Positions 3,361 to 36,921 of a DNA stretch of 64,000 nt are shown in pieces (position 1 is the stretch's first letter; each line of letters begins with the position of its first letter). The notes beneath the pieces were generated by a model. That model searched no databases. It saw only the letters and a program-made list of their open reading frames with translations, and was not told the DNA's origin. Source of the DNA: Candidatus Saccharimonadota bacterium (GTDB taxonomy: Bacteria > Patescibacteriota > Saccharimonadia > Saccharimonadales > JACDBH01). The position numbers and the translations under genes are program-made. Location of the stretch: NCBI GenBank assembly GCA_028289135.1, contig JAQGGW010000006.1, positions 7,334 to 71,333 of the forward strand, read 5' to 3'.

Positions 3361-3899
3361 TGAAACGCTACGACACAACCAAGCAATGGTACGCTATCCA
3401 CACTTATAGCGGCTACGAAGAAAAGGTCGCAGAATCTATCCGCCAGCGTGCGGAATCACTAGACATGAAGGACAAAATCTATCAGGTTTTGGTTCCTAAA
3501 GAAAAAATGATCGAAATCAAGAACGGCAAACGAAAAGTCGTTGAAAAGCGCATTTTCCAGGGCTATGTAATGGTAGAAATGAAGCTGACAGAAGACGCAT
3601 GGTACATTGTCCGCAACACCCCATCTGTTACTGGATTTGTTGGAACCGGCACTGAGCCGACCCCTGTTGAAAATGAAGAAATAGAAAAAATAATGAAGCG
3701 CATGGGCAAGGATGAGCCAAAGCACAAGATGGACTACAAAATTGGCGATGTTGTTAACATCATCGACGGTCCATTCAAGGGCTTTGACGGCGCTATTAAT
3801 GAAATTGACCCAGCTAAGGGCAAACTGAAAGTGCTCGTAAACATGTTTGGCCGCGAAACACCTGTTGAGCTTGATGGCTTACAGGTTAAGAAGACCTAA
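3360..3899 (+). CDS. nusG: Transcription termination/antitermination factor NusG
   Basis: KQWYAIHTYSGYEEKV NGN start and a C-terminal KOW block (GDVVNIIDGPFKGFDGAINEID). Canonical secE-nusG-rplK synteny. Confidence 0.95.
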   Translation: MKRYDTTKQWYAIHTYSGYEEKVAESIRQRAESLDMKDKIYQVLVPKEKMIEIKNGKRKVVEKRIFQGYVMVEMKLTEDAWYIVRNTPSVTGFVGTGTEPTPVENEEIEKIMKRMGKDEPKHKMDYKIGDVVNIIDGPFKGFDGAINEIDPAKGKLKVLVNMFGRETPVELDGLQVKKT

Positions 3900-7529: not shown

Positions 7530-9870
7530 GAAAACAACGCCGTCAACAAACGGCCGCTACATCGTTATTGAAGGCGCCGAGGGCGTCGGCAAAACCACTC
7601 AGCTGACCATGCTTGGGCAACGACTGGAAAAAGCTGGCTATCCTGTAAGATTATTCCGCGAACCAGACAGCCAAAGCGACCTTACAGCCCGCGCCATCCG
7701 CATGCTAACCCAAGATCCACGCTACCCAATGAACACGCGCACCGAAGTGCTGCTATACAACGCCGCCCGCAGCCAGTCGCTAGAAGTCATTAAGCGCGCC
7801 CGTGACGCCGGTGTTATCTGCCTCTGCGATCGCAACTACCTAACAACTCTTGCTATCCAGTACTACGGCCGCGGCGATGTGCCAGATTACGATACTATCA
7901 ACAGCATCATTAGCTTTGCGGTGGCCGACATGCAGCCGGACATGACCATTGTGCTTGATGCGCCAGTGCAGGACCTTAAAAAACGCTCAGAAAATCGCAA
8001 CGCTGGTGAACGTTTTGACAACTTAGACGAAGCATTTTTGGAACGTGTCCGGGCTGGATACCTTTGGGAAGCAAAACAGCGCGGCTTTTCGGTTATCTCG
8101 GCCATTAATTCCCCCGAGGAAGTAAACGAAGAAATCTGGAAGATCCTCAACGGCGCTGCCCAAACCCCAACTGCCGAGACAAACGAACCTCCAATGCTCA
8201 CATCAGCATCAGCAGCCACCACGCCTGCAGCTTCTATCAAAGAAGTTATCGAGGCCAAAATTGACCATCTTGAAGAAAAAAAGAAGCTAGAATTCCTTAA
8301 AAAAGACAAAGCAGGGCACTTTAAGATAACTGCCGACGGCAAAGAGTTCTTAAACGACGCTGTTACCACAAGTGACGGTGATGTCTACGCTTTTACCGAC
8401 AAACTTAGCCCAACCACGATTGCGGCCGCCATGGCCCGCCTCAGCCGCCGCGGTGACGACATGCGCGTGACATTGCTCGACGAATTCGCAGCTAGTGCAG
8501 GCAAAGACGCCAAGCTGCTCCAACGTGTTATTACCGCCTACGGCGATGACTCTGTCCAGCAGCTCGTGGGTATTCATGTAGTGGTCGAAAACGCCTCCAA
8601 TCTCCTAACCAAAAAGTTGGAATGGGGACGTCTGGCCGCTTATTTGGAACAGTCCACCCGCTATATTTACTTTGACCAAAAGGACCAGCACGGCAAATAC
8701 CGCTACTTTACGCCTGCCGATCTGCCGCTGAAGCTAAAGGATCACTACGAAGAAGTCATGGACAAGATTTTTGATATTTATTCGGATATGGTTCATAAGC
8801 TGACAGACTATGTCCGTGACCATTCAAGCGTCCCAGAAGCTGAGCGTGATGGCGCATTCAACGGCGCGACCCGTGCCCAAGCTTGCGACGCCATCCGAGC
8901 CGTTTTGCCAGTCGCCGTAAAGTCAACGGTCGGTATTTATGCTTCTGGGCAAGCTCTAGAAAGCCTTATTATGCATCTTCAGTCCGACAACTTGCCGGAA
9001 GCCCGCAAAGTTGGCGATGACCTTCTGCGTGAAGCCCGCAAAACAGTCCCAACATTTTTGGAGCGCGCCGACAAACCAGACCGCGGCGGCGCAATGGTAG
9101 CCTACCGCTCCAACACCTATAATGCTATGAAAAGGGTGGCCGACGAACAGCTTAAGCAGAACCTCGGCTCGCTGGACGAAGACATCCAGCTGGTAGACTA
9201 CTGGCCGCGCAATGAATTAGACCTCTTGCCGCACATGCTCTACGAGCACAGCACAATGAGCCTTAAAGACATCAAAAAAGAGATTCAAGCATGGCCGTAC
9301 GAGCAAAAACTAGCAGCATTTAGAACATATATGGGCGAACGCCTTAACCGCCGCCACAAGCCGGGCAGGGCGTTAGAAGCTGCCCATTATAGCTGGGACC
9401 TTTTGTGTGATTACGGGATCTTTCGTGATCTCCAGCGCCACCGCATGGTTGACGCCTTTGACTGGCAGCAGCTTACTCCGCGCTACGGCTTTGATATGCC
9501 TGAATTGGTTGAGCAAGCAGGCCTAAGCGACCAATTTGAACAGTGTTTTGACCTTAGCGCCGCGCTGTATAGCCAGCTCCAGGCCGAAGGTTTTGCGCTT
9601 GAGGCCCAGTACGCCACATTGCTTGGCCACCGCATGCGCTGGAAAATAATTTATAACGCCCGCGAAGCATTCCACTTTCACGAACTCCGCACTGCGCCGC
9701 AAGGCCACCCCGGCTACCGCAAACTAGTCAAAGAAATGCACGACAAAGTCGCTGAAATCCACCCGCTGCTCACCGACGCTATGATTTTTGTAAACAGAGA
9801 CGAAGACGAAGAGTTAACCCGCCTCGCCGCCGAAAAATACACCCAGTTTAAGCTAAGCCAGCTAAGCTAG
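7522..9870 (+). CDS. Fusion protein: thymidylate kinase (N-terminal) joined to a double-length ThyX-like flavin-dependent thymidylate synthase (C-terminal)
   Basis: Tmk P-loop YIVIEGAEGVGKTTQ plus a Tmk-like core of about 205 aa. Pro/Ala/Thr linker. A roughly 540-aa ThyX-like region carries LEQSTRYIYF in its first half and FRDLQRHRMVD (RHR at 9436-9444) and ELRTAPQGHPGYR in its second half. The start overlaps the dcd stop by 8 nt. Confidence 0.8.
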   Translation: MNEKTTPSTNGRYIVIEGAEGVGKTTQLTMLGQRLEKAGYPVRLFREPDSQSDLTARAIRMLTQDPRYPMNTRTEVLLYNAARSQSLEVIKRARDAGVICLCDRNYLTTLAIQYYGRGDVPDYDTINSIISFAVADMQPDMTIVLDAPVQDLKKRSENRNAGERFDNLDEAFLERVRAGYLWEAKQRGFSVISAINSPEEVNEEIWKILNGAAQTPTAETNEPPMLTSASAATTPAASIKEVIEAKIDHLEEKKKLEFLKKDKAGHFKITADGKEFLNDAVTTSDGDVYAFTDKLSPTTIAAAMARLSRRGDDMRVTLLDEFAASAGKDAKLLQRVITAYGDDSVQQLVGIHVVVENASNLLTKKLEWGRLAAYLEQSTRYIYFDQKDQHGKYRYFTPADLPLKLKDHYEEVMDKIFDIYSDMVHKLTDYVRDHSSVPEAERDGAFNGATRAQACDAIRAVLPVAVKSTVGIYASGQALESLIMHLQSDNLPEARKVGDDLLREARKTVPTFLERADKPDRGGAMVAYRSNTYNAMKRVADEQLKQNLGSLDEDIQLVDYWPRNELDLLPHMLYEHSTMSLKDIKKEIQAWPYEQKLAAFRTYMGERLNRRHKPGRALEAAHYSWDLLCDYGIFRDLQRHRMVDAFDWQQLTPRYGFDMPELVEQAGLSDQFEQCFDLSAALYSQLQAEGFALEAQYATLLGHRMRWKIIYNAREAFHFHELRTAPQGHPGYRKLVKEMHDKVAEIHPLLTDAMIFVNRDEDEELTRLAAEKYTQFKLSQLS

Positions 9871-10369
9871 AAACATTTGCATAATCTTCAGGTGTGTAAA
9901 TTTGAAAAGAAAATACCTCAAATGTATTTCCGGTCAAAGAATTATGATCATGCTTCGGTGACCTAGGAAAACGTTGTCCTGTCATAAGAAGATCTGCCTC
10001 ATGGCTATAAGCTGCTTCTACTTGTATATAAGGCGGATCAATCAAATTATCGTTATTTACTTCAATGTCTAAAGGTCCAGCAAGTAACAAAAATCCACGG
10101 TTAAACCAAAATCTTCCCACATCATCTTGGTTTGCACTTACTACAAAAGGTGGTGGTAGGTTTTCTTCAAGCTTATGAGGAAACTTTCCTGCCAAAATCC
10201 TAGCTGCCATTGTACCTCTGTCAAGATCCTTGACAGCTCTGTCTTTACTCTTATCATCAAGTCCCATAATATCGTGGAACCATCCCTCACGAATACGCTG
10301 GCTAACATGTAAGTCACCTTCAAAAGAGGGCACTTTTTGTCCAAGCAATATATTTAATCCGTGACTCAT
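9848..10369 (-). CDS. Hypothetical protein
   Basis: 173-aa ORF. It is convergent with the tmk::thyX 3' end and overlaps it by 23 nt. AT-rich by eye. No recognised motif. Confidence 0.5.
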   Translation of the reverse strand: MSHGLNILLGQKVPSFEGDLHVSQRIREGWFHDIMGLDDKSKDRAVKDLDRGTMAARILAGKFPHKLEENLPPPFVVSANQDDVGRFWFNRGFLLLAGPLDIEVNNDNLIDPPYIQVEAAYSHEADLLMTGQRFPRSPKHDHNSLTGNTFEVFSFQIYTPEDYANVSSLAGLA

Positions 10370-10412
10370 ATCTTTATTATATCACACTTAAGCTTATTAT
10401 GCAATATTAGTG

Positions 10413-10440
10413 TTGACGTTTAAGATTAAAAGAGTAAGCT
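10413..10440 (+). promoter_or_regulatory. Promoter candidate for the 10614 gene leader
   Basis: TTGACG (10413-10418), 16-nt spacer, TAAGCT (10435-10440). This predicts a 5' leader of about 165 nt. Confidence 0.35.
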
Positions 10441-10482
10441 AAAGTACGTTATGGTATTCGCTAACTCCAAATTACACGCGCT

Positions 10483-10595
10483 CAACCTTCTAGGTCTTAT
10501 AGAGGTTGTGTTGCCTATGGAGTGAAGCCAAACTAGATCCCGCAACAGAACCAGTCACCCTTAAACCCGGCTTCACTCCATACGTGAAGTTTTTT
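10483..10595 (+). promoter_or_regulatory. Structured 5' leader with mutually exclusive long hairpin and terminator (riboswitch- or attenuator-like)
   Basis: Hairpin 10483-10508. A 13-bp perfect stem, ATGGAGTGAAGCC (10517-10529) with GGCTTCACTCCAT (10569-10581), closes a 39-nt loop. The right arm shares CTTCAC (10571-10576) with a small hairpin CTTCAC/GTGAAG (10584-10589) followed by TTTTTT (10590-10595). AAGGAG and ATG 10614 follow. Confidence 0.35.
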
Positions 10596-10613
10596 AATTT
10601 TTAAGGAGAATAT

Positions 10614-11048
10614 ATGAATAATCATCAACAAAGTCCAAAACGTATAAACAACTGGGTTTTCAAACGCGGTGCGCCAATTAGAAGGGCAGCAGGAGAAAAT
10701 TACGAACCGGCAAAAGGTGTTCCAGGAGCAGAAGCTGCAAGAACATTGATAGAAATATTTATAGCATCTGGACAAGAACTAAATGAAAACGACCAGAGAA
10801 AATTTACAGCTGCAAAACGCTTATTTGGCATTGCAGATCCAGAGTATGCAAAAAATCATACATTAGATGCATCCACAGATGTAATTGCTGCTACAGTCGA
10901 AGTACAGAACAACGTAGTTTCTCAAGATGGTTCAGTAGCAGGAGAGGCTCCCCAAGTAATCTACCTGAACAGTAACTTTGGAGGCATGTTTCACGAGTAC
11001 TATACTGGAACGGATAAAACACCCGAGCCCCATATTTCAGAAACTTGA
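10614..11048 (+). CDS. Hypothetical protein
   Basis: 144-aa ORF with a good SD (AAGGAG) 7 nt upstream. No recognised motif. Confidence 0.55.
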   Translation: MNNHQQSPKRINNWVFKRGAPIRRAAGENYEPAKGVPGAEAARTLIEIFIASGQELNENDQRKFTAAKRLFGIADPEYAKNHTLDASTDVIAATVEVQNNVVSQDGSVAGEAPQVIYLNSNFGGMFHEYYTGTDKTPEPHISET

Positions 11049-11073
11049 CATATTACCCCCGTTAATCTATACT
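11045..11073 (+). promoter_or_regulatory. Near-consensus sigma70-type promoter for rplJ-rplL
   Basis: TTGACA (11045-11050), 17-nt spacer, TATACT (11068-11073). This predicts a 5' UTR of about 190 nt. Confidence 0.6.
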
Positions 11074-11080
11074 TTGTTTT

Positions 11081-11199
11081 GATTACCAAAGACAGTAGCG
11101 ATCGCAAGATTTAAGAATGCTACCGAGGTGAACATCTAGATTCTATTTGTTCAACGTAGAAACGTCTTTGTTAGTAATAACAGAGGCGTTTTTCGTTTT
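11081..11199 (+). promoter_or_regulatory. L10(L12)-leader-like 5' UTR with a terminator/attenuator hairpin
   Basis: Position upstream of rplJ. ACCAAAGACAGTAGC...GCTACCGAGGTG hairpin. A 13-bp stem AAACGTCTTTGTT / AACAGAGGCGTTT (11160-11191, with two U-G wobbles on the plus strand) is followed by TTCGTTTT. The match to the Rfam L10 leader was not verified. Confidence 0.4.
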
Positions 11200-11273
11200 A
11201 GTAATCAGTTGTATCTTTTCAAGGTCGATAAGATCAACACCTAGGTAAACTAAAATCCTAAAGGATTTATTAC

Positions 11274-19739: not shown

Positions 19740-19995
19740 ACCGCGGCACGGTTTTTCCTTGCCATTCAACTGTTTCTAGCCAAACGGACAACGGCCTTAC
19801 AAACTCTACGCCGTTATTTTTTGCCGAAGCATACCGCACGACAACCGCATTATCTTCCTCCATTATTACCAAGCCTTTTACTTGGTAGGGCATTTCAGGA
19901 TGTTTGTAATGAGCGTAGTATTTACCCAACTGTACACTTTTAGCGGCTTCGATCAATTCACGCTCAAGTTCTTCGTAAGTTTTTTTGTCATCCAT
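19705..19995 (-). CDS. DUF1653-like small protein
   Basis: 96 aa. The pattern YYAHYKHPEMPYQVKGLVIMEEDNAVVVRY...VRPLSVWLETV recalls DUF1653. The 3' end overlaps the recR 3' end by 35 nt. Confidence 0.6.
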   Translation of the reverse strand: MDDKKTYEELERELIEAAKSVQLGKYYAHYKHPEMPYQVKGLVIMEEDNAVVVRYASAKNNGVEFVRPLSVWLETVEWQGKTVPRFTLLGGLPARA

Positions 19996-20037
19996 AACTA
20001 TATGATATCAGGCTATAACACCGTACAATAGTAAATA

Positions 20038-26894: not shown

Positions 26895-27827
26895 TTACGG
26901 TTTACGGGCAAGGCGTTTACGCAGCTGCGGCGGAAAGATAACACTGGCAAACTTTTTTTCACCAATAATACTCGGCGAATGAGAAGTGGTACTGGCTGTA
27001 TAGACTGAAACATCGTCAAAAATTTTACGAAGGTTTTGTTCAACTCTTTGGCCGTCAAAGTATTTGTCGGCAGCTACGGTCACGTGTGCCAGCGGTACTG
27101 ATAATTTTTTCTTGGTATTATCAACTTTCAAAAACTCTACGGTTGTGGTCATGTGAGTACGTACATCGTTTACGCGCCAAAGATAGACTTCAAAGTCATT
27201 GGTAGCAGCACGCGCCTGAGCATCCAGCCCTTCAAACTTTTCTTTGGCATTATGAAGACGGTGGTAAACAGCTTTTAAAACGGTTGGGTGCAAGAAAATA
27301 TTTCGGAAAAATACGGCCGGAATTTTGTGGCTAAATACTCGCGCGCCCGATCTATAGAAAAAGTAACGTGTTTTAGTAAACGTAAAGTCATCTTTGTGTG
27401 AAAAACCAACCGAGCTGATAAGTAAATCGACTTGTTTTTCGAGCTCTGGATACAACTGCAGCATCCGTGTGACGACTATAAACCCAAACGAAAACCCCAT
27501 AATTGTCAGGCGCTTATTTTTATAACGCAGCTTTATAAACGAAGCCAGGTAGCCAGCCAGGTTGTCGAGCGTAGGCTTTTCGTGGATCGTATAAAAGCTG
27601 TCCATACCGCCAAACCCCGGCAAATCAGGCATTGTAACTGCGCCGTAATCATTTAATACTTCCGCTACACCGTACATCCGTTCCAAGCTTGTGTGATGCC
27701 CATAAACAAGCAATATCTCACGTTTTTTCTTGTTTTTCGCAGGCAATCGCAGCATCCGCCCGCGAAGGCCATTCATGTTTATTGGAATAACGTATTCGGC
27801 CGGTATTTGCACAGCAGGTTTTGGCAT
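26895..27827 (-). CDS. Alpha/beta hydrolase (paralogue 2)
   Basis: LPGFGGMD and nucleophile elbow GFSFG. Collinear similarity to 25887-26843, for example YG(Q/H)H..LER and YPELxxQV. Confidence 0.65.
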   Translation of the reverse strand: MPKPAVQIPAEYVIPINMNGLRGRMLRLPAKNKKKREILLVYGHHTSLERMYGVAEVLNDYGAVTMPDLPGFGGMDSFYTIHEKPTLDNLAGYLASFIKLRYKNKRLTIMGFSFGFIVVTRMLQLYPELEKQVDLLISSVGFSHKDDFTFTKTRYFFYRSGARVFSHKIPAVFFRNIFLHPTVLKAVYHRLHNAKEKFEGLDAQARAATNDFEVYLWRVNDVRTHMTTTVEFLKVDNTKKKLSVPLAHVTVAADKYFDGQRVEQNLRKIFDDVSVYTASTTSHSPSIIGEKKFASVIFPPQLRKRLARKP

Positions 27828-27849
27828 AGATTATCTAAAACTATACAAT
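27821..27849 (+). promoter_or_regulatory. Sigma70-type promoter pointing into the gene-free structured region
   Basis: TTGGCA (27821-27826), 17-nt spacer, TACAAT (27844-27849). It overlaps the start codon of the divergent hydrolase gene. Confidence 0.4.
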
Positions 27850-27898
27850 AAATCTGAACTAAATAACAGATACAAAACAATTTAATCCTCTCTTCTTA

Positions 27899-28084
27899 GC
27901 TAAACCCCTTCCATCCTGACAAGCAACACCCAACTTATAGGTAAGCTCCCAGTCAAGAGACACAACAAGCCTGCGGAACTTGATGCTACGCATCTTCAAA
28001 CAGTCCTCGGCTGGATTTTGTTGTGTCTTTGACGGAGCTTAGCCTAAAAAGTGTGTAAGCATGCCAGGATGGAAGGGATTTAGC
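27899..28084 (+). ncRNA. Candidate 6S-RNA-like structured RNA (element A); strand uncertain
   Basis: 20-bp closing stem, 27899-27918 with 28065-28084, with one C/A mismatch. Internal loop of about 19 x 18 nt. Bulged stem of about 28 bp, 27938-27968 with 28018-28046. Apical domain of about 49 nt. Total 186 nt. No ORF. No Rfam scan was possible. Confidence 0.35.
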
Positions 28085-28086
28085 TT

Positions 28087-28313
28087 GCGGACGCTTAACA
28101 CTAGTTCCTAGTGATTAACGTCCGCAGCCCAAACGCACCCAGTATACAGGCGGCTACCAGGAAAAACTGATGAAAATCAGTAAGTGGCATTACGAGCTCC
28201 GAGGACTAGCCCTGAAAGGGCCGACCATAGGGAGTCCCGCAGGAGCCGAATGACAATTACTAATTTTCAATAATGTTTTTTCTGAGTCGGTTGTAGGCTG
28301 GGTGCGTTTGGGC
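28087..28313 (+). ncRNA. 39-nt hairpin plus a 187-nt rod-like structured RNA candidate (element B); strand uncertain
   Basis: Hairpin GCGGACG...CGTCCGC at 28087-28125. A 16-bp perfect stem (28127-28142 with 28298-28313) encloses successive helices and an apical GCCC-TGAAA-GGGC (28209-28221). The local hairpin CTGAT-GAAA-ATCAG (28167-28180) has a GNRA loop on the plus strand. Confidence 0.3.
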
Positions 28314-28350
28314 AGAAAGAGAAAACTTAGCTTTTATCCTAGGCTTATGC

Positions 28351-28379
28351 TTGATATTTTTAAATAGTCATGCTATAGT
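28351..28379 (+). promoter_or_regulatory. Sigma70-type promoter for the DEAD-box helicase gene
   Basis: TTGATA (28351-28356), 17-nt spacer, TATAGT (28374-28379). This predicts a 5' UTR of about 120 nt. Confidence 0.55.
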
Positions 28380-28505
28380 TTAGACATATTGTTCGACTAA
28401 TGAATCCAGGTAGTTTTGTACGAAGTAGTTTTTAGTACCGAGGTTTCATTCATTTAAACAATGAAGTACTAATAATAACTTACAAAACAAGAAGGATTCT
28501 TTTTT

Positions 28506-29708
28506 ATGTACACACCATCTAACAACCGCCGTCCATCACGTGGACGTAGCTTTGGGGGCCAAAGCAGCTCAAACCGCCGCAGCGGTGGGCCAAAAAACCA
28601 CAAACAAAACATTAACCCTAGCCGATTTATTAAGCCTGCTACCGCTTTTGTTGATGAAGTCTATACTTCTGAGCACAGCTTTGATGACTTTGCGATGCAC
28701 CCACTGCTTAAGAAGAACATTGCTACCAAAGGCTACATTACACCGTCCCCAATCCAGGACAAGGCCATCCCGCACGGTCTTATGGGCAAAGACGTGCTTG
28801 GAATTGCTAACACCGGTACTGGCAAGACTGCTGCTTTTGCATTGCCAGTCCTACACAAGCTTCTAGAACAACCAGGCAGCCGAGTGCTGATCATCGCCCC
28901 AACCCGCGAACTAGCAGAACAGATCGAAGACGAATGCCGTTCATTTGCCAAGGGCAGCGGACTGTTTGGCGTTCTCCTGATTGGCGGTGCCAGCATGACC
29001 AACCAGCTTCGTGACCTTAAGAAAAAGCCAGAAATTGTCATCGGAACTCCAGGACGTATCAAAGACCATGTTGAACGCGGCACTTTGAGCCTTTCAACTT
29101 TTAACCTCGTTGTATTAGATGAAGTTGACCGCATGGTCGACATGGGCTTTATCGCCGACATCCGTTATTTGCTTGGCGGCATCCCGGAAGTGCGCCAGTC
29201 GCTATTCTTTAGCGCGACCATTGAGCCAAAAATAGCCCAGCTTATTAATACCTTTTTGATTGATCCAATCACCATTTCTGTCCGCACCAGCGAAACAAGC
29301 GACAATGTCGAACAAGACGTGGTCTACTACAGCGGCCGCGACGATCGTATCGACAAGCTGCACGACGTATTAAACAGCGCAAAAGACGGCAAAGTATTAA
29401 TTTTTGACGAAACCAAGTTTGGTGTTGAACGCCTTGGCAATGAACTTGTCCAGCGTGGCTTTAAGGCCGATGCCTTGCACGGCGGCAAATCACAGAGCCA
29501 ACGCCAGCGCGCATTAAAGCGTTTCCGTACTAATGACATTAATGTTTTGGTGGCAACCGACGTTGCTGCCCGCGGTATTGACGTTGCCGACATTACGCAT
29601 GTTATTAACTACGCAACTCCGAACACTTACGAAGATTACGTCCACCGTATTGGCCGTGCTGGACGTGCAGGCCGCACCGGCACCGCGCTGACATTCATTA
29701 GCAGATAA
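28506..29708 (+). CDS. DEAD-box ATP-dependent RNA helicase with an Arg/Gly/Ser-rich N-terminus
   Basis: Q-motif region, ANTGTGKTAAF (motif I), VLDEVDRM (motif II, DEVD variant), SAT, and HRIGRAGRAGRTG (motif VI). Confidence 0.9.
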   Translation: MYTPSNNRRPSRGRSFGGQSSSNRRSGGPKNHKQNINPSRFIKPATAFVDEVYTSEHSFDDFAMHPLLKKNIATKGYITPSPIQDKAIPHGLMGKDVLGIANTGTGKTAAFALPVLHKLLEQPGSRVLIIAPTRELAEQIEDECRSFAKGSGLFGVLLIGGASMTNQLRDLKKKPEIVIGTPGRIKDHVERGTLSLSTFNLVVLDEVDRMVDMGFIADIRYLLGGIPEVRQSLFFSATIEPKIAQLINTFLIDPITISVRTSETSDNVEQDVVYYSGRDDRIDKLHDVLNSAKDGKVLIFDETKFGVERLGNELVQRGFKADALHGGKSQSQRQRALKRFRTNDINVLVATDVAARGIDVADITHVINYATPNTYEDYVHRIGRAGRAGRTGTALTFISR

Positions 29709-36596: not shown

Positions 36597-36647
36597 CTTT
36601 AGGTTATTCAAGTTTATTTTTTAATTGCTCCCGCCGTCCCTATCCTT

Positions 36648-36773
36648 GGAAGTTTCATCACATTGATTTAGCCGCTGGAGACAGTTTTACGCTATTAAAT
36701 CAACGTGCCGAAACTTCCCGTAAACCTCACCATGCCTTTGAGAGCTTTGTGAAGCCCCTGGATGGGGCTTCAC
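36648..36773. other. Two stable hairpins in the convergent intergenic region (unassigned; 3'-UTR elements or a small RNA)
   Basis: Hairpin a is 36648-36718: a 9-bp stem GGAAGTTTC/GAAACTTCC plus a 12-bp stem CACATTGATTTA/TAAATCAACGTG carrying one A/C mismatch that would be U-G on the minus strand. Hairpin b is 36749-36773: GTGAAGCCCC-TGGAT-GGGGCTTCAC. Neither has a U-tract. Confidence 0.3.
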
Positions 36774-36795
36774 GTCTGCCTCTAATTAGTTAACC

Positions 36796-36912
36796 GGTGC
36801 TTTTCAGTAGTGCAATTTGGTCGAAGAACGAGCACTGTATTCGGAGTGTACAGAGAAGTACATGGAGAAACGGAGCGGAGATATTCGGCCAAAATGTGCA
36901 CTGAAAAGTGGC
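36796..36912. repeat. Inverted pair of the short dispersed repeat forming a hairpin of about 115 nt at the 3' end of the two-component operon
   Basis: 36800-36822 (CTTTTCAGTAGTGCAATTTGGTC) is an imperfect reverse complement of 36887-36908 (GGCCAAAATGTGCACTGAAAAG). About 60 nt lie between them, including a small TGTAC/GTACA hairpin. Confidence 0.5.
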
Positions 36913-36921
36913 GGCCGTCTG

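Follow-up and report, generated by a model that had tools for sequence, protein, structure and literature searches.

A selected array of three long hairpins between a hydrolase and a DEAD-box helicase gene in Saccharibacteria, one of them related to rod-shaped elements at other loci

Introduction

What is a block of three long, abutting hairpins doing between a hydrolase gene and a helicase gene of a candidate Saccharibacteria genome, i.e. is it a fixed RNA gene, a leader of the helicase or an assembly of palindromic modules? The genomes of Saccharibacteria and other bacteria of the candidate phyla radiation (CPR) are small and tightly packed, so that a selected non-coding block of 415 nt stands out. 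To our knowledge, very few non-coding RNAs have been described from these bacteria. A preliminary description of the 64,000-nt stretch of DNA analysed here (the window) took the first hairpin to be a candidate 6S-like RNA and the last one to be a second structured RNA, and could not assign the block to RNase P, tmRNA, SRP RNA or a riboswitch. We therefore compare the block with its counterparts in related genomes and weigh the explanations that it allows.

Results

Gene-free gap and folding of the hairpins

The three abutting hairpins reported before were found again, at 27898–28313, and consist of element A (27898–28085, 188 nt), element M (28086–28126, 41 nt, GCGGACG...CGTCCGC) and element B (28127–28313, 187 nt), with M adjoining both A and B without any linker. 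On the left, the gap is bounded by a gene running divergently from the block (26895–27827, minus strand), which NCBI names alpha/beta hydrolase and which shows weak matches to the Pfam families Abhydrolase_1 and Hydrolase_4. On the right follows the gene of an RhlE-like DEAD-box RNA helicase (28506–29708, plus strand), assigned from the Pfam domains DEAD (4e-48) and Helicase_C (4e-34) and from the names in the source. As an ORF check confirmed, the gap at 27828–28505 is free of ORFs of 60 aa or more; the longest one fully within it has 46 aa (27859–27999, minus strand), and two further ORFs, of 52 and 51 aa, enter from the left edge. A conserved small ORF in the block was rejected, as the 27-aa ORF of B meets a stop after five codons in the sister genome L271.

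The region 27890–28320 folds with -214.4 kcal/mol on the plus strand (z -15.1, matched by none of 100 shuffles) and -217.7 kcal/mol on the minus strand (z -13.9). When the entire 64-kb window is folded in sliding segments of 200 nt, A and B are the two strongest outliers. Each hairpin also folds far better by itself than its shuffled versions (0 of 200 as good in each case), i.e. the rod-like A with -89.8 kcal/mol on the plus strand (z -10.8) and -100.7 on the minus strand, M with -22.0 (z -7.9) and the equally rod-like B, on the plus strand, with -99.3 (z -10.9). The closing stems are as had been described, namely 16 perfect base pairs in B and about 20 in A with a single C/A mismatch. By fold stability, A prefers the minus strand and B the plus strand in both genomes that carry the block, the minus-strand fold of A being better by about 10 kcal/mol in the window and in L271 alike. 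An outer helix around all three hairpins (CUCUUCUU / AGAAAGAG) forms in the window and was dropped, because it is absent from the minimum-energy fold of L271.

Several other readings of the locus were considered and abandoned: a replication origin, given that there is no turn in GC skew and no cluster of DnaA boxes, as well as an integron attC site and a single-strand origin, given that no integrase or Rep gene is found nearby. BLAST searches of phage and plasmid collections with the block gave no match, viral contigs scanned with the arms of A and B gave single 16-mer chance matches only, and viral contigs scanned with the apical motif of B gave either nothing or chance matches without support from the covariance models. 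The longest stop-free frame inside A, used as a query for miscalled ORFs on other copies, found no candidate in the protein database. A metagenome scan with the closing-stem 16-mer of B returned at least 120 matches, and those listed comprised chance matches and an unrelated termite-gut repeat sharing a 21-mer. Of note, Logan contigs break inside A and B, which is uninformative because those contigs break often.

Selection on base-pairing

The window and L271 are sister genomes, their hydrolase and LPG synthase proteins being 82 and 85 % identical, respectively (53–58 % against other relatives), and their neutral sites are saturated, with 30–48 % identity at four-fold degenerate sites of eight genes. 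Against this background, A and M are each 80.5 % and B is 91.3 % identical between the two genomes, and the short spacers adjoining the hairpins are 54–76 % identical. Compensatory pairs are present. After the 60 observed substitutions, the fold still reaches -196 kcal/mol on the plus and -201 on the minus strand, compared with averages of -132 and -135 for 300 random substitution sets matched to the observed one in size and transition share (z -5.6 and -6.0), and none of the 300 reaches the observed value. The substitutions in A alone likewise preserve its fold (z -4.5 and -5.4). Since the observed changes keep the fold so much better than random ones, base-pairing in the block is under selection.

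Element A and the 6S reading

While the size of A (188 nt), its long closing stem, the weakly paired middle and the inner stem in the window, together with a promoter-like site upstream, are what a 6S-type RNA would offer, i.e. a mimic of an open promoter that sequesters the RNA polymerase holoenzyme, the comparison with known families and relatives speaks against it. A cmscan of 27700–28600 on both strands at E<=10 gave four chance-level matches to unrelated families and none to 6S RNA, so that A has no match to 6S or any other Rfam family at this threshold, in line with the earlier lack of a match to RNase P, tmRNA, SRP RNA or a riboswitch; at gathering thresholds, the whole window yields the L10 leader only. 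The internal loop of 19 x 18 nt, formerly taken to be the central bubble of A, is not a clean bubble, the minimum-energy fold placing 2+2+4 pairs there, and in L271 almost all of it is paired, including stems of 5 and 6 bp. Moreover, the apex of A in L271 carries an inserted 63-nt hairpin, and A folds more stably on the minus strand, against the direction of the promoter.

The distribution of A is equally narrow. A covariance model of A (R3), run against 95 Saccharibacteria/CPR loci, finds A in the window and L271 and in none of the other 93, and at this intergenic site A is also missing from the remaining lineages of its group. In so far as sequences can decide, the 6S reading of A is refuted, and we regard it as having next to no probability.

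A filled site in one clade

The block as a whole is known only from the window and L271, where A corresponds to 9324–9573 and B to 9626–9809 and where the stem of M is conserved with a loop 11 nt longer. At least nine related lineages lack it between their hydrolase and helicase genes: in six of them (L002, L003, L004, L275, L278 and L281) the gap is empty and 209–255 bp long, and it carries other content in L272, L276 and L277. Neither the 64-kb window nor 818 kb of loci from relatives contains a second A, M or B. A and M are hairpins specific to this clade.

Element B belongs to a dispersed family

The situation is different for B. A covariance model of B (R1) matches two distant Saccharimonadales, L285 at 10646–10785 (51.7 bits, E 8e-11) and L028 at 3641–3761 (27.3 bits), which brings the B-type members to four sequences from three independent lineages. 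Their common core, with covarying stems and conserved loops, spans 28151–28289 on the plus strand of the window and corresponds to L271 9650–9786, L028 3633–3772 and L285 10646–10784. In the alignment of the four sequences (A11), 93.4 % of the cells of 50 pairs are paired and 23 of the 50 pairs are changed on both sides, counts that are inflated because the alignment was fitted to the structure; none of 500 shuffles was as good, and slid controls gave one to five pairs changed on both sides. A model built from this alignment (R2) matches with 113–125 bits and on the plus strand only, and neither the L271 nor the L028 or L285 element has a match in Rfam.

The apical domain of B (28199–28243, plus strand) is conserved in sequence, with the consensus CCGAGGAC(Y)AGCC-loop-GGCCGAC-N-GGAGUCCCGCAGG and a conserved asymmetric internal loop, GA / CGCA; a K-turn was considered for this loop, and its consensus, judged by eye, did not appear to fit. 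Exact matches to both 13-nt apical blocks occur in the window, L271 and L028 only, in 2.1 Mb searched, and L285 differs at one or two positions. A Logan contig from the same genome as the window (L001) contains only the 3' one of the two blocks, as an exact match.

All four members fold better on the plus strand, G-U pairs are conserved on one strand of the family, and the plus strand is the sense strand of the neighbouring transcription unit in every case. Because of the covarying stems, the asymmetric apical domain and the one-stranded G-U pairs, B is most likely read as RNA on the plus strand. Judged from these comparisons of sequence and predicted structure, B is a member of an undescribed, dispersed family of rod-shaped structured elements of about 140–190 nt in Saccharimonadales.

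The preliminary description had held the block to be a structured non-coding element and not mere spacer. This part of the claim is upheld, while the 6S identity of A is unsupported. The claim of structure stands strongest for B because of conservation far above neutral, fold-preserving substitutions, covariation across four sequences from three lineages and the lack of an Rfam family.

Mobile palindromes or conserved modules

How, then, did the hairpins arrive? The window and L271 have the block at this site, six lineages have the site without any insert, and the B-like element sits at different loci in L028 and L285: in L028 it lies upstream of the helicase promoter, and in its relative L285 it lies 26 nt after a Fic gene, with none upstream of the helicase. 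A hairpin of a different family, at 36636–36722 of the window, has a counterpart with 84 % identity between the hydrolase and helicase genes of L272, and the region 36597–36921 differs from L271 by three separately inserted hairpins. The term 'dispersed module' is based on the one relocation between L028 and L285 and on analogy with this other hairpin family.

It is tempting to read the same facts at the level of DNA, with the hairpins serving recognition by a transposase and not any RNA, as selfish, non-autonomous palindromes of the MITE, REP or REPIN kind that inserted where a gap between divergent promoters tolerated them. Each of the three hairpins is an inverted repeat over its whole length with near-perfect termini, and A and B prefer opposite strands. 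The gap also behaves as a hot spot whose content varies with the lineage: it may be empty or hold other hairpins, two genes or a short additional stretch. The 63-nt hairpin nested in the apex of A in L271, the three separate insertions at 36597–36921 and the varying loci, from genome to genome, of the 36636–36722 and B families fit such an origin as well.

However, neither the window nor the 818 kb of related loci has a second A, M or B, let alone the near-identical copies with target-site duplications that the preliminary description had named as a sign of MITE-like elements. The one candidate duplication, TTAGCT, was discarded, as its copies at 27896 and 28080 belong to the palindromic stem of A itself and L271 does not conserve the third one, at 28327. 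Around B, and likewise around the B-like elements in L028 and L285, there are no flanking direct repeats. Neither is there a transposase, including a RAYT-like gene, among the genes called in the loci examined. Furthermore, the sole orthologous copy is kept at 80–91 % identity with fold-preserving changes while neutral sites are saturated, and therefore either host-level selection or a very recent site-specific re-insertion is needed. The strand-specific, conserved apical domain of B and its conserved G-U pairs are likewise at odds with a role in DNA alone. Taken together, we consider selfish DNA palindromes an unlikely explanation, with perhaps one chance in a handful.

Promoters and the link to the helicase

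Both promoter-like sites noted before were recovered by the promoter scan. The distal one, P2 (TTGGCA-17-TACAAT, 27821–27849, plus strand), faces the block, overlaps the start codon of the divergent hydrolase gene and is identical in L271 at 9247–9275; at its position, relatives without the block have TACAAG or TACATG. In L028, the B-like element also comes after a similar TACAAT site, and the L285 member has the promoter-like site of the Fic operon. The conservation of P2 may nevertheless be unrelated to the block, because its hexamers overlap both the start codon and the -10 box of the hydrolase gene.

The proximal site, P1 (TTGATA-17-TATAGT, preceded by TG, 28351–28379, plus strand), is the promoter of the helicase gene and is conserved in all relatives, with or without the block. 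It is followed, outside the block, by a conserved 5' leader (28380–28505, plus strand; AUGAAUCC ... AAGGAUUCUUUUUU AUG), which is 93 % identical to L271 and 82–92 % identical to other relatives, with four-fold sites saturated, which could be aligned over ten sequences, and in which inverted repeats at 28399–28420 and 28481–28502 cover the ribosome-binding site. Since at least nine related lineages keep promoter and leader and lack the block, the helicase gene has a promoter of its own, in agreement with what had been proposed.

The same observation weighs against a dedicated cis-regulatory leader, in which transcripts from P2 would carry the double-stranded rods into the helicase mRNA and the helicase or RNase III would act on them in a feedback loop. 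In its favour, deaD/csdA of Escherichia coli has a long regulatory 5' UTR. Two independent lineages (window/L271 and L028) have a B-type rod ahead of the helicase promoter, in the orientation of the helicase gene. Neither the window nor L271 has a predicted terminator after B, leaving none between B and the helicase in the window, and unrelated long rods lie directly upstream of, or within, the helicase leader in L006 and L065. On the other hand, the L285 member is 4.4 kb from the helicase, after the Fic gene, and the chance of two of the three occurrences falling in the helicase gap is about 0.04 by a rough estimate that is not a formal test, the association being biased because the loci were sampled around helicase genes. 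A dedicated helicase leader therefore appears improbable to us.

Discussion

Our data point, with confidence slightly better than even, to a clade-specific array of three independently folding long hairpins whose pairing is kept by selection and of which B is a dispersed rod-shaped RNA element comparable to ERIC, BOX and Correia elements. Separate hairpin modules were probably joined into this array in the ancestor that the window genome shares with L271. With members at different loci, B-type elements would resemble transcribed intergenic palindromic modules of the ERIC, BOX or Correia type and not a fixed housekeeping RNA gene. Transcription of the block probably starts at P2 and would yield either a non-coding RNA or a long leader upstream; a leader transcript would end at, or run into, the helicase promoter region, where it may act through RNA stability, processing or control of read-through. 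A single plus-strand transcript fits A poorly, because A folds better on the minus strand and B on the plus strand, and the strand of A and M, as well as any effect on the helicase, is an inference.

ERIC (or IRU) elements of enterobacteria are imperfect palindromes of 127 bp in transcribed intergenic regions. A and B, as well as the other B members, are likewise rod-like imperfect palindromes of 100–200 nt with a stable fold, the block is intergenic and in DNA that is probably transcribed, it is present or absent at orthologous sites of related species, and its sequence is conserved far above neutral. Even the internal insertions known from some ERIC copies have a parallel in the nested 63-nt hairpin of L271. 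In contrast, A, M and B each occur once within the 64-kb window, they show no sequence similarity to ERIC, the apical domain of B is distinct, conserved and asymmetric, and the host belongs to a reduced-genome Saccharibacteria lineage.

Correia elements (CREE/NEMIS) of Neisseria and BOX elements of pneumococci are modular hairpin elements that join neighbouring transcripts and can bring promoters or processing sites, and their mosaics of modules are paralleled by the A-M-B array and by the three hairpins inserted at 36597–36921. They differ in that Correia elements have 26-bp terminal repeats, TA duplications and hundreds of copies, none of which is seen here, and in that BOX modules are repeated within one genome, whereas A, M and B are unrepeated in the window and the further 818 kb. 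With 6S RNA (RF00013), A shares a similar length, the rod-like shape and the long closing stem, but it has no model match, no conserved central bubble and no group-wide conservation, and its strand preference is opposite to the putative promoter. REP and REPIN sequences, mobilized by RAYT transposases, are hairpin-forming extragenic palindromes with preserved pairing (PMC3733652), and M has the size of a REP (41 nt) and contains CGTC. REPs are 20–40 bp long and of high copy number, whereas A and B measure about 187 nt and are single-copy in the sequence searched; no RAYT-like gene is present in the loci examined.

We give a small chance, of the same order as for the dedicated leader, to a sharper choice, i.e. 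that B-type rods are either functionally tied to the DEAD-box helicase or a structured element that spreads between genes without a recognizable transposase. If tied to the helicase, a long double-stranded RNA with a conserved apical protein-binding domain would have been recruited upstream of its promoter independently in two Saccharimonadales lineages, and the B rod might set helicase expression by mimicking a substrate or acting as a sensor.

The B-type rod is a candidate for a new RNA family, with covariation that is unusually clear for so few members, and a working covariance model for such rods now exists. If the rods are dispersed modules, they would be the first ERIC/BOX-like elements reported for this group, as far as our knowledge and full-text literature searches show, and they would account for the variation among assemblies of these genomes at particular intergenic sites. 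If B is instead tied to the helicase, the locus would offer a testable case of an RNA helicase under the control of a double-stranded RNA from the DNA adjoining its gene.

Three hairpins in the hydrolase/helicase gap

Gene and ORF calls place an intergenic gap at 27828-28505, between the divergent genes of an alpha/beta hydrolase (26895-27827, minus strand) and a DEAD-box helicase (28506-29708, plus strand). As previously claimed, every ORF within the gap is shorter than 60 aa. The gap harbours three abutting hairpins, i.e. element A (27898-28085; -89.8 kcal/mol, z -10.8), element M (28086-28126; -22.0 kcal/mol, z -7.9) and element B (28127-28313; -99.3 kcal/mol, z -10.9). The z-score of the whole-block fold is -15 on the plus and -14 on the minus strand, and when the 64-kb window is folded in sliding segments, the hairpins come out as its two strongest outliers. 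The stems, their coordinates and the two promoter-like sites of the preliminary description, i.e. the distal P2 (27821-27849, plus strand, TTGGCA-17-TACAAT) and the proximal helicase promoter P1 (28351-28379, plus strand, TTGATA-17-TATAGT), were all correct on re-checking.

The only Rfam 15 family in the whole window is the ribosomal protein L10 leader (11068-11203, RF00557, 69.8 bits); the region 27700-28600 gave no meaningful match at E<=10, including to 6S RNA and the large ncRNA families. No tRNA or tmRNA is present, and the phage and plasmid collections contained nothing resembling the block. That A is a 6S RNA, as had been proposed from its layout, is hardly credible: the stems hold, but the central 'bubble' is partly paired in the fold and is not conserved, no family model matches, and A is not conserved across relatives. 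Among 95 loci, a covariance model of A (R3) matches the window and its sister contig L271 only. In both, the minus strand gives A the more stable fold, a preference for which no predicted promoter accounts.

Selection on base-pairing

Four-fold degenerate sites of eight genes are saturated when the window is compared with L271 (30-48 % identical) and the adjoining short spacers are 54-76 % identical, while A and M are each 80.5 % and B 91.3 % identical, the latter being close to the conservation of the helicase leader (93 %). With the 60 observed substitutions put into the window sequence, the block folds at -196 kcal/mol on the plus and -201 kcal/mol on the minus strand, as compared with averages of -132 and -135 kcal/mol for 300 random sets matched for size and transition share (z -5.6 and -6.0), none of which reached the observed values. 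Fold preservation was seen separately in A, M and B. RNAalifold found six pairs altered on both sides, and the window's own fold, not fitted to L271, shows three double-sided changes with 93 % of cells paired. Since pairing is kept despite the substitutions, the hairpins are being maintained rather than decaying.

In L271, the loop of M is 11 nt longer and a 63-nt hairpin (TTTTTTGC..CATCGGGC-TTT-GCCCGATG..GCAAAAAA, L271 9399-9476) is nested exactly at the apex of A; no further copies of it were found across the loci examined.

Distribution among relatives

The window's helicase places it in Candidatus Saccharibacteria, and the corresponding locus of its relatives was gathered from GTDB genomes and from contigs bearing close helicase homologues. 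In six relatives (L002, L003, L004, L275, L278 and L281) the hydrolase/helicase gap spans only 209-255 bp and is block-free. The gap is a variable hot spot between lineages: in L276 it is occupied by two extra genes (8486-9779), one with a weak match to a proteasome subunit, in L277 by a short extra stretch (the gap, 892-1196, measures 305 bp and contains a 42-aa ORF) and in L272 by 330 nt of unrelated hairpins (2040-2365). Among the relatives' gaps, the block is present only in L271, a JGI contig. Protein identities make L271 the sister of the window (hydrolase 82 % and LPG synthase 85 % identical, vs 53-58 % with other relatives), and a single acquisition of the block by their shared ancestor would therefore suffice to account for where it occurs.

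All relatives have the final ~165 nt of the gap in common, comprising P1 and a conserved leader. This leader (28380-28505) is 82-93 % conserved across species with saturated synonymous sites, contains a long-range helix (GAAUCC ... GGAUUC) covering the ribosome-binding site and is likely a regulatory leader of the DEAD-box helicase.

A dispersed family of B-like elements

With R1, a covariance model derived from element B of the window and of L271, a match was obtained in L028 (3641-3761), a Saccharimonadales genome with a helicase of only 63 % identity. It sits in a 577-bp gap upstream of the helicase gene, on the strand of that gene and before the helicase's own promoter. When relatives of L028 were added, a stronger match was found in L285 (10646-10785; 51.7 bits, E 8e-11), 26 nt downstream of a Fic gene and near a methyltransferase and a MutH-like gene, i.e. 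not upstream of a helicase. While the two independent placements of B upstream of a helicase would fit a leader or feedback element dedicated to the helicase, the L285 copy makes this improbable, and any such association is biased by the choice of loci, which were collected around helicase genes. The stretch before the L285 element (8492-10620) harbours the MutH-like gene, an N6/N4 DNA methyltransferase, a 33-aa ORF and the Fic-domain gene, and may represent a mobile defence or toxin-antitoxin islet.

The family shares three conserved sequence blocks, i.e. GAAAAACUGA on the 5' side, CCGAGGAC(Y)AGCC-loop-GGCCGAC-N-GGAGUCCCGCAGG at the apex and AUCAUGUUUUUU on the 3' side, and the stems between them vary in sequence and stay paired. 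In the curated four-sequence alignment A11, which represents three independent lineages only, 93.4 % of cells at 50 pairs are paired and 23 of these pairs are altered on both sides; no shuffle out of 500 was as good and slid-partner controls gave 1-5 double-changed pairs, a large margin even though A11 was fitted to the structure and its counts lean that way. Across 818 kb of Saccharibacteria/CPR loci, the refined model R2 matches the four members and nothing else, and on the plus strand only. All four are more stable on this strand and several G-U pairs are conserved, which together points to B being read as RNA in the same direction as its neighbouring genes. None of the four has an Rfam family. 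A repeat family from termite-gut metagenomes (at least seven loci, including L153, L177, L179, L184, L198, L207 and L222) has nothing in common with B beyond the 21-mer GCAGCCCAAACGCACCCAGTA in B's left arm.

Proposed gain of hairpin modules

Elsewhere in the window, a spacer of 325 bp (36597-36921; fold z-score -5) corresponds to one of 78 bp in L271 (18031-18108) plus three separately placed hairpins, i.e. one at 36636-36722 (minus strand), a GC hairpin (GTGAAGCCCC-TGGAT-GGGGCTTCAC) and a rod of ~115 nt (~36797-36910). The first is flanked by a Crp-like gene and a response regulator, and recurs inverted, with 84 % identity, in the L272 hydrolase/helicase gap (2269-2355). This unit of ~88 nt (a hairpin of ~71 nt and a short conserved tail), with at least one compensatory pair, is a second dispersed hairpin family. 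Unrelated rods of 135-200 nt occur in other Saccharibacteria, i.e. at the helicase upstream region of L006 (3817-3982, inside the helicase leader between its two conserved arms) and L065 (2345-2545), and in L005 (1552-1686, with a 34-bp perfect stem). A further ~260 bp extra in the window (19740-20037, vs L271 1412-1447) apparently holds a small minus-strand ORF from near 19995 and no hairpin.

These lineage-variable hairpins, together with the relocation of B between L028 and L285, suggest that hairpin modules are gained one at a time at intergenic sites, and the A-M-B array is probably a mosaic of such separately gained modules. Purely DNA-level mobile palindromes are an unlikely explanation, considering that A, M and B are single-copy in the window and the related loci searched, that no target-site duplications were found, and that the elements show long-term conservation and strand-specific features. 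Expression of the array would probably start from the putative P2; a TACAAT site of this type is found in the window, L271 and L028, and TACAAG in relatives without the block. On sequence evidence, we lean towards an array of structured elements that is under selection and most likely transcribed, in which B would represent a new dispersed family of rod-shaped RNAs, comparable in behaviour to the ERIC, BOX and Correia modules.
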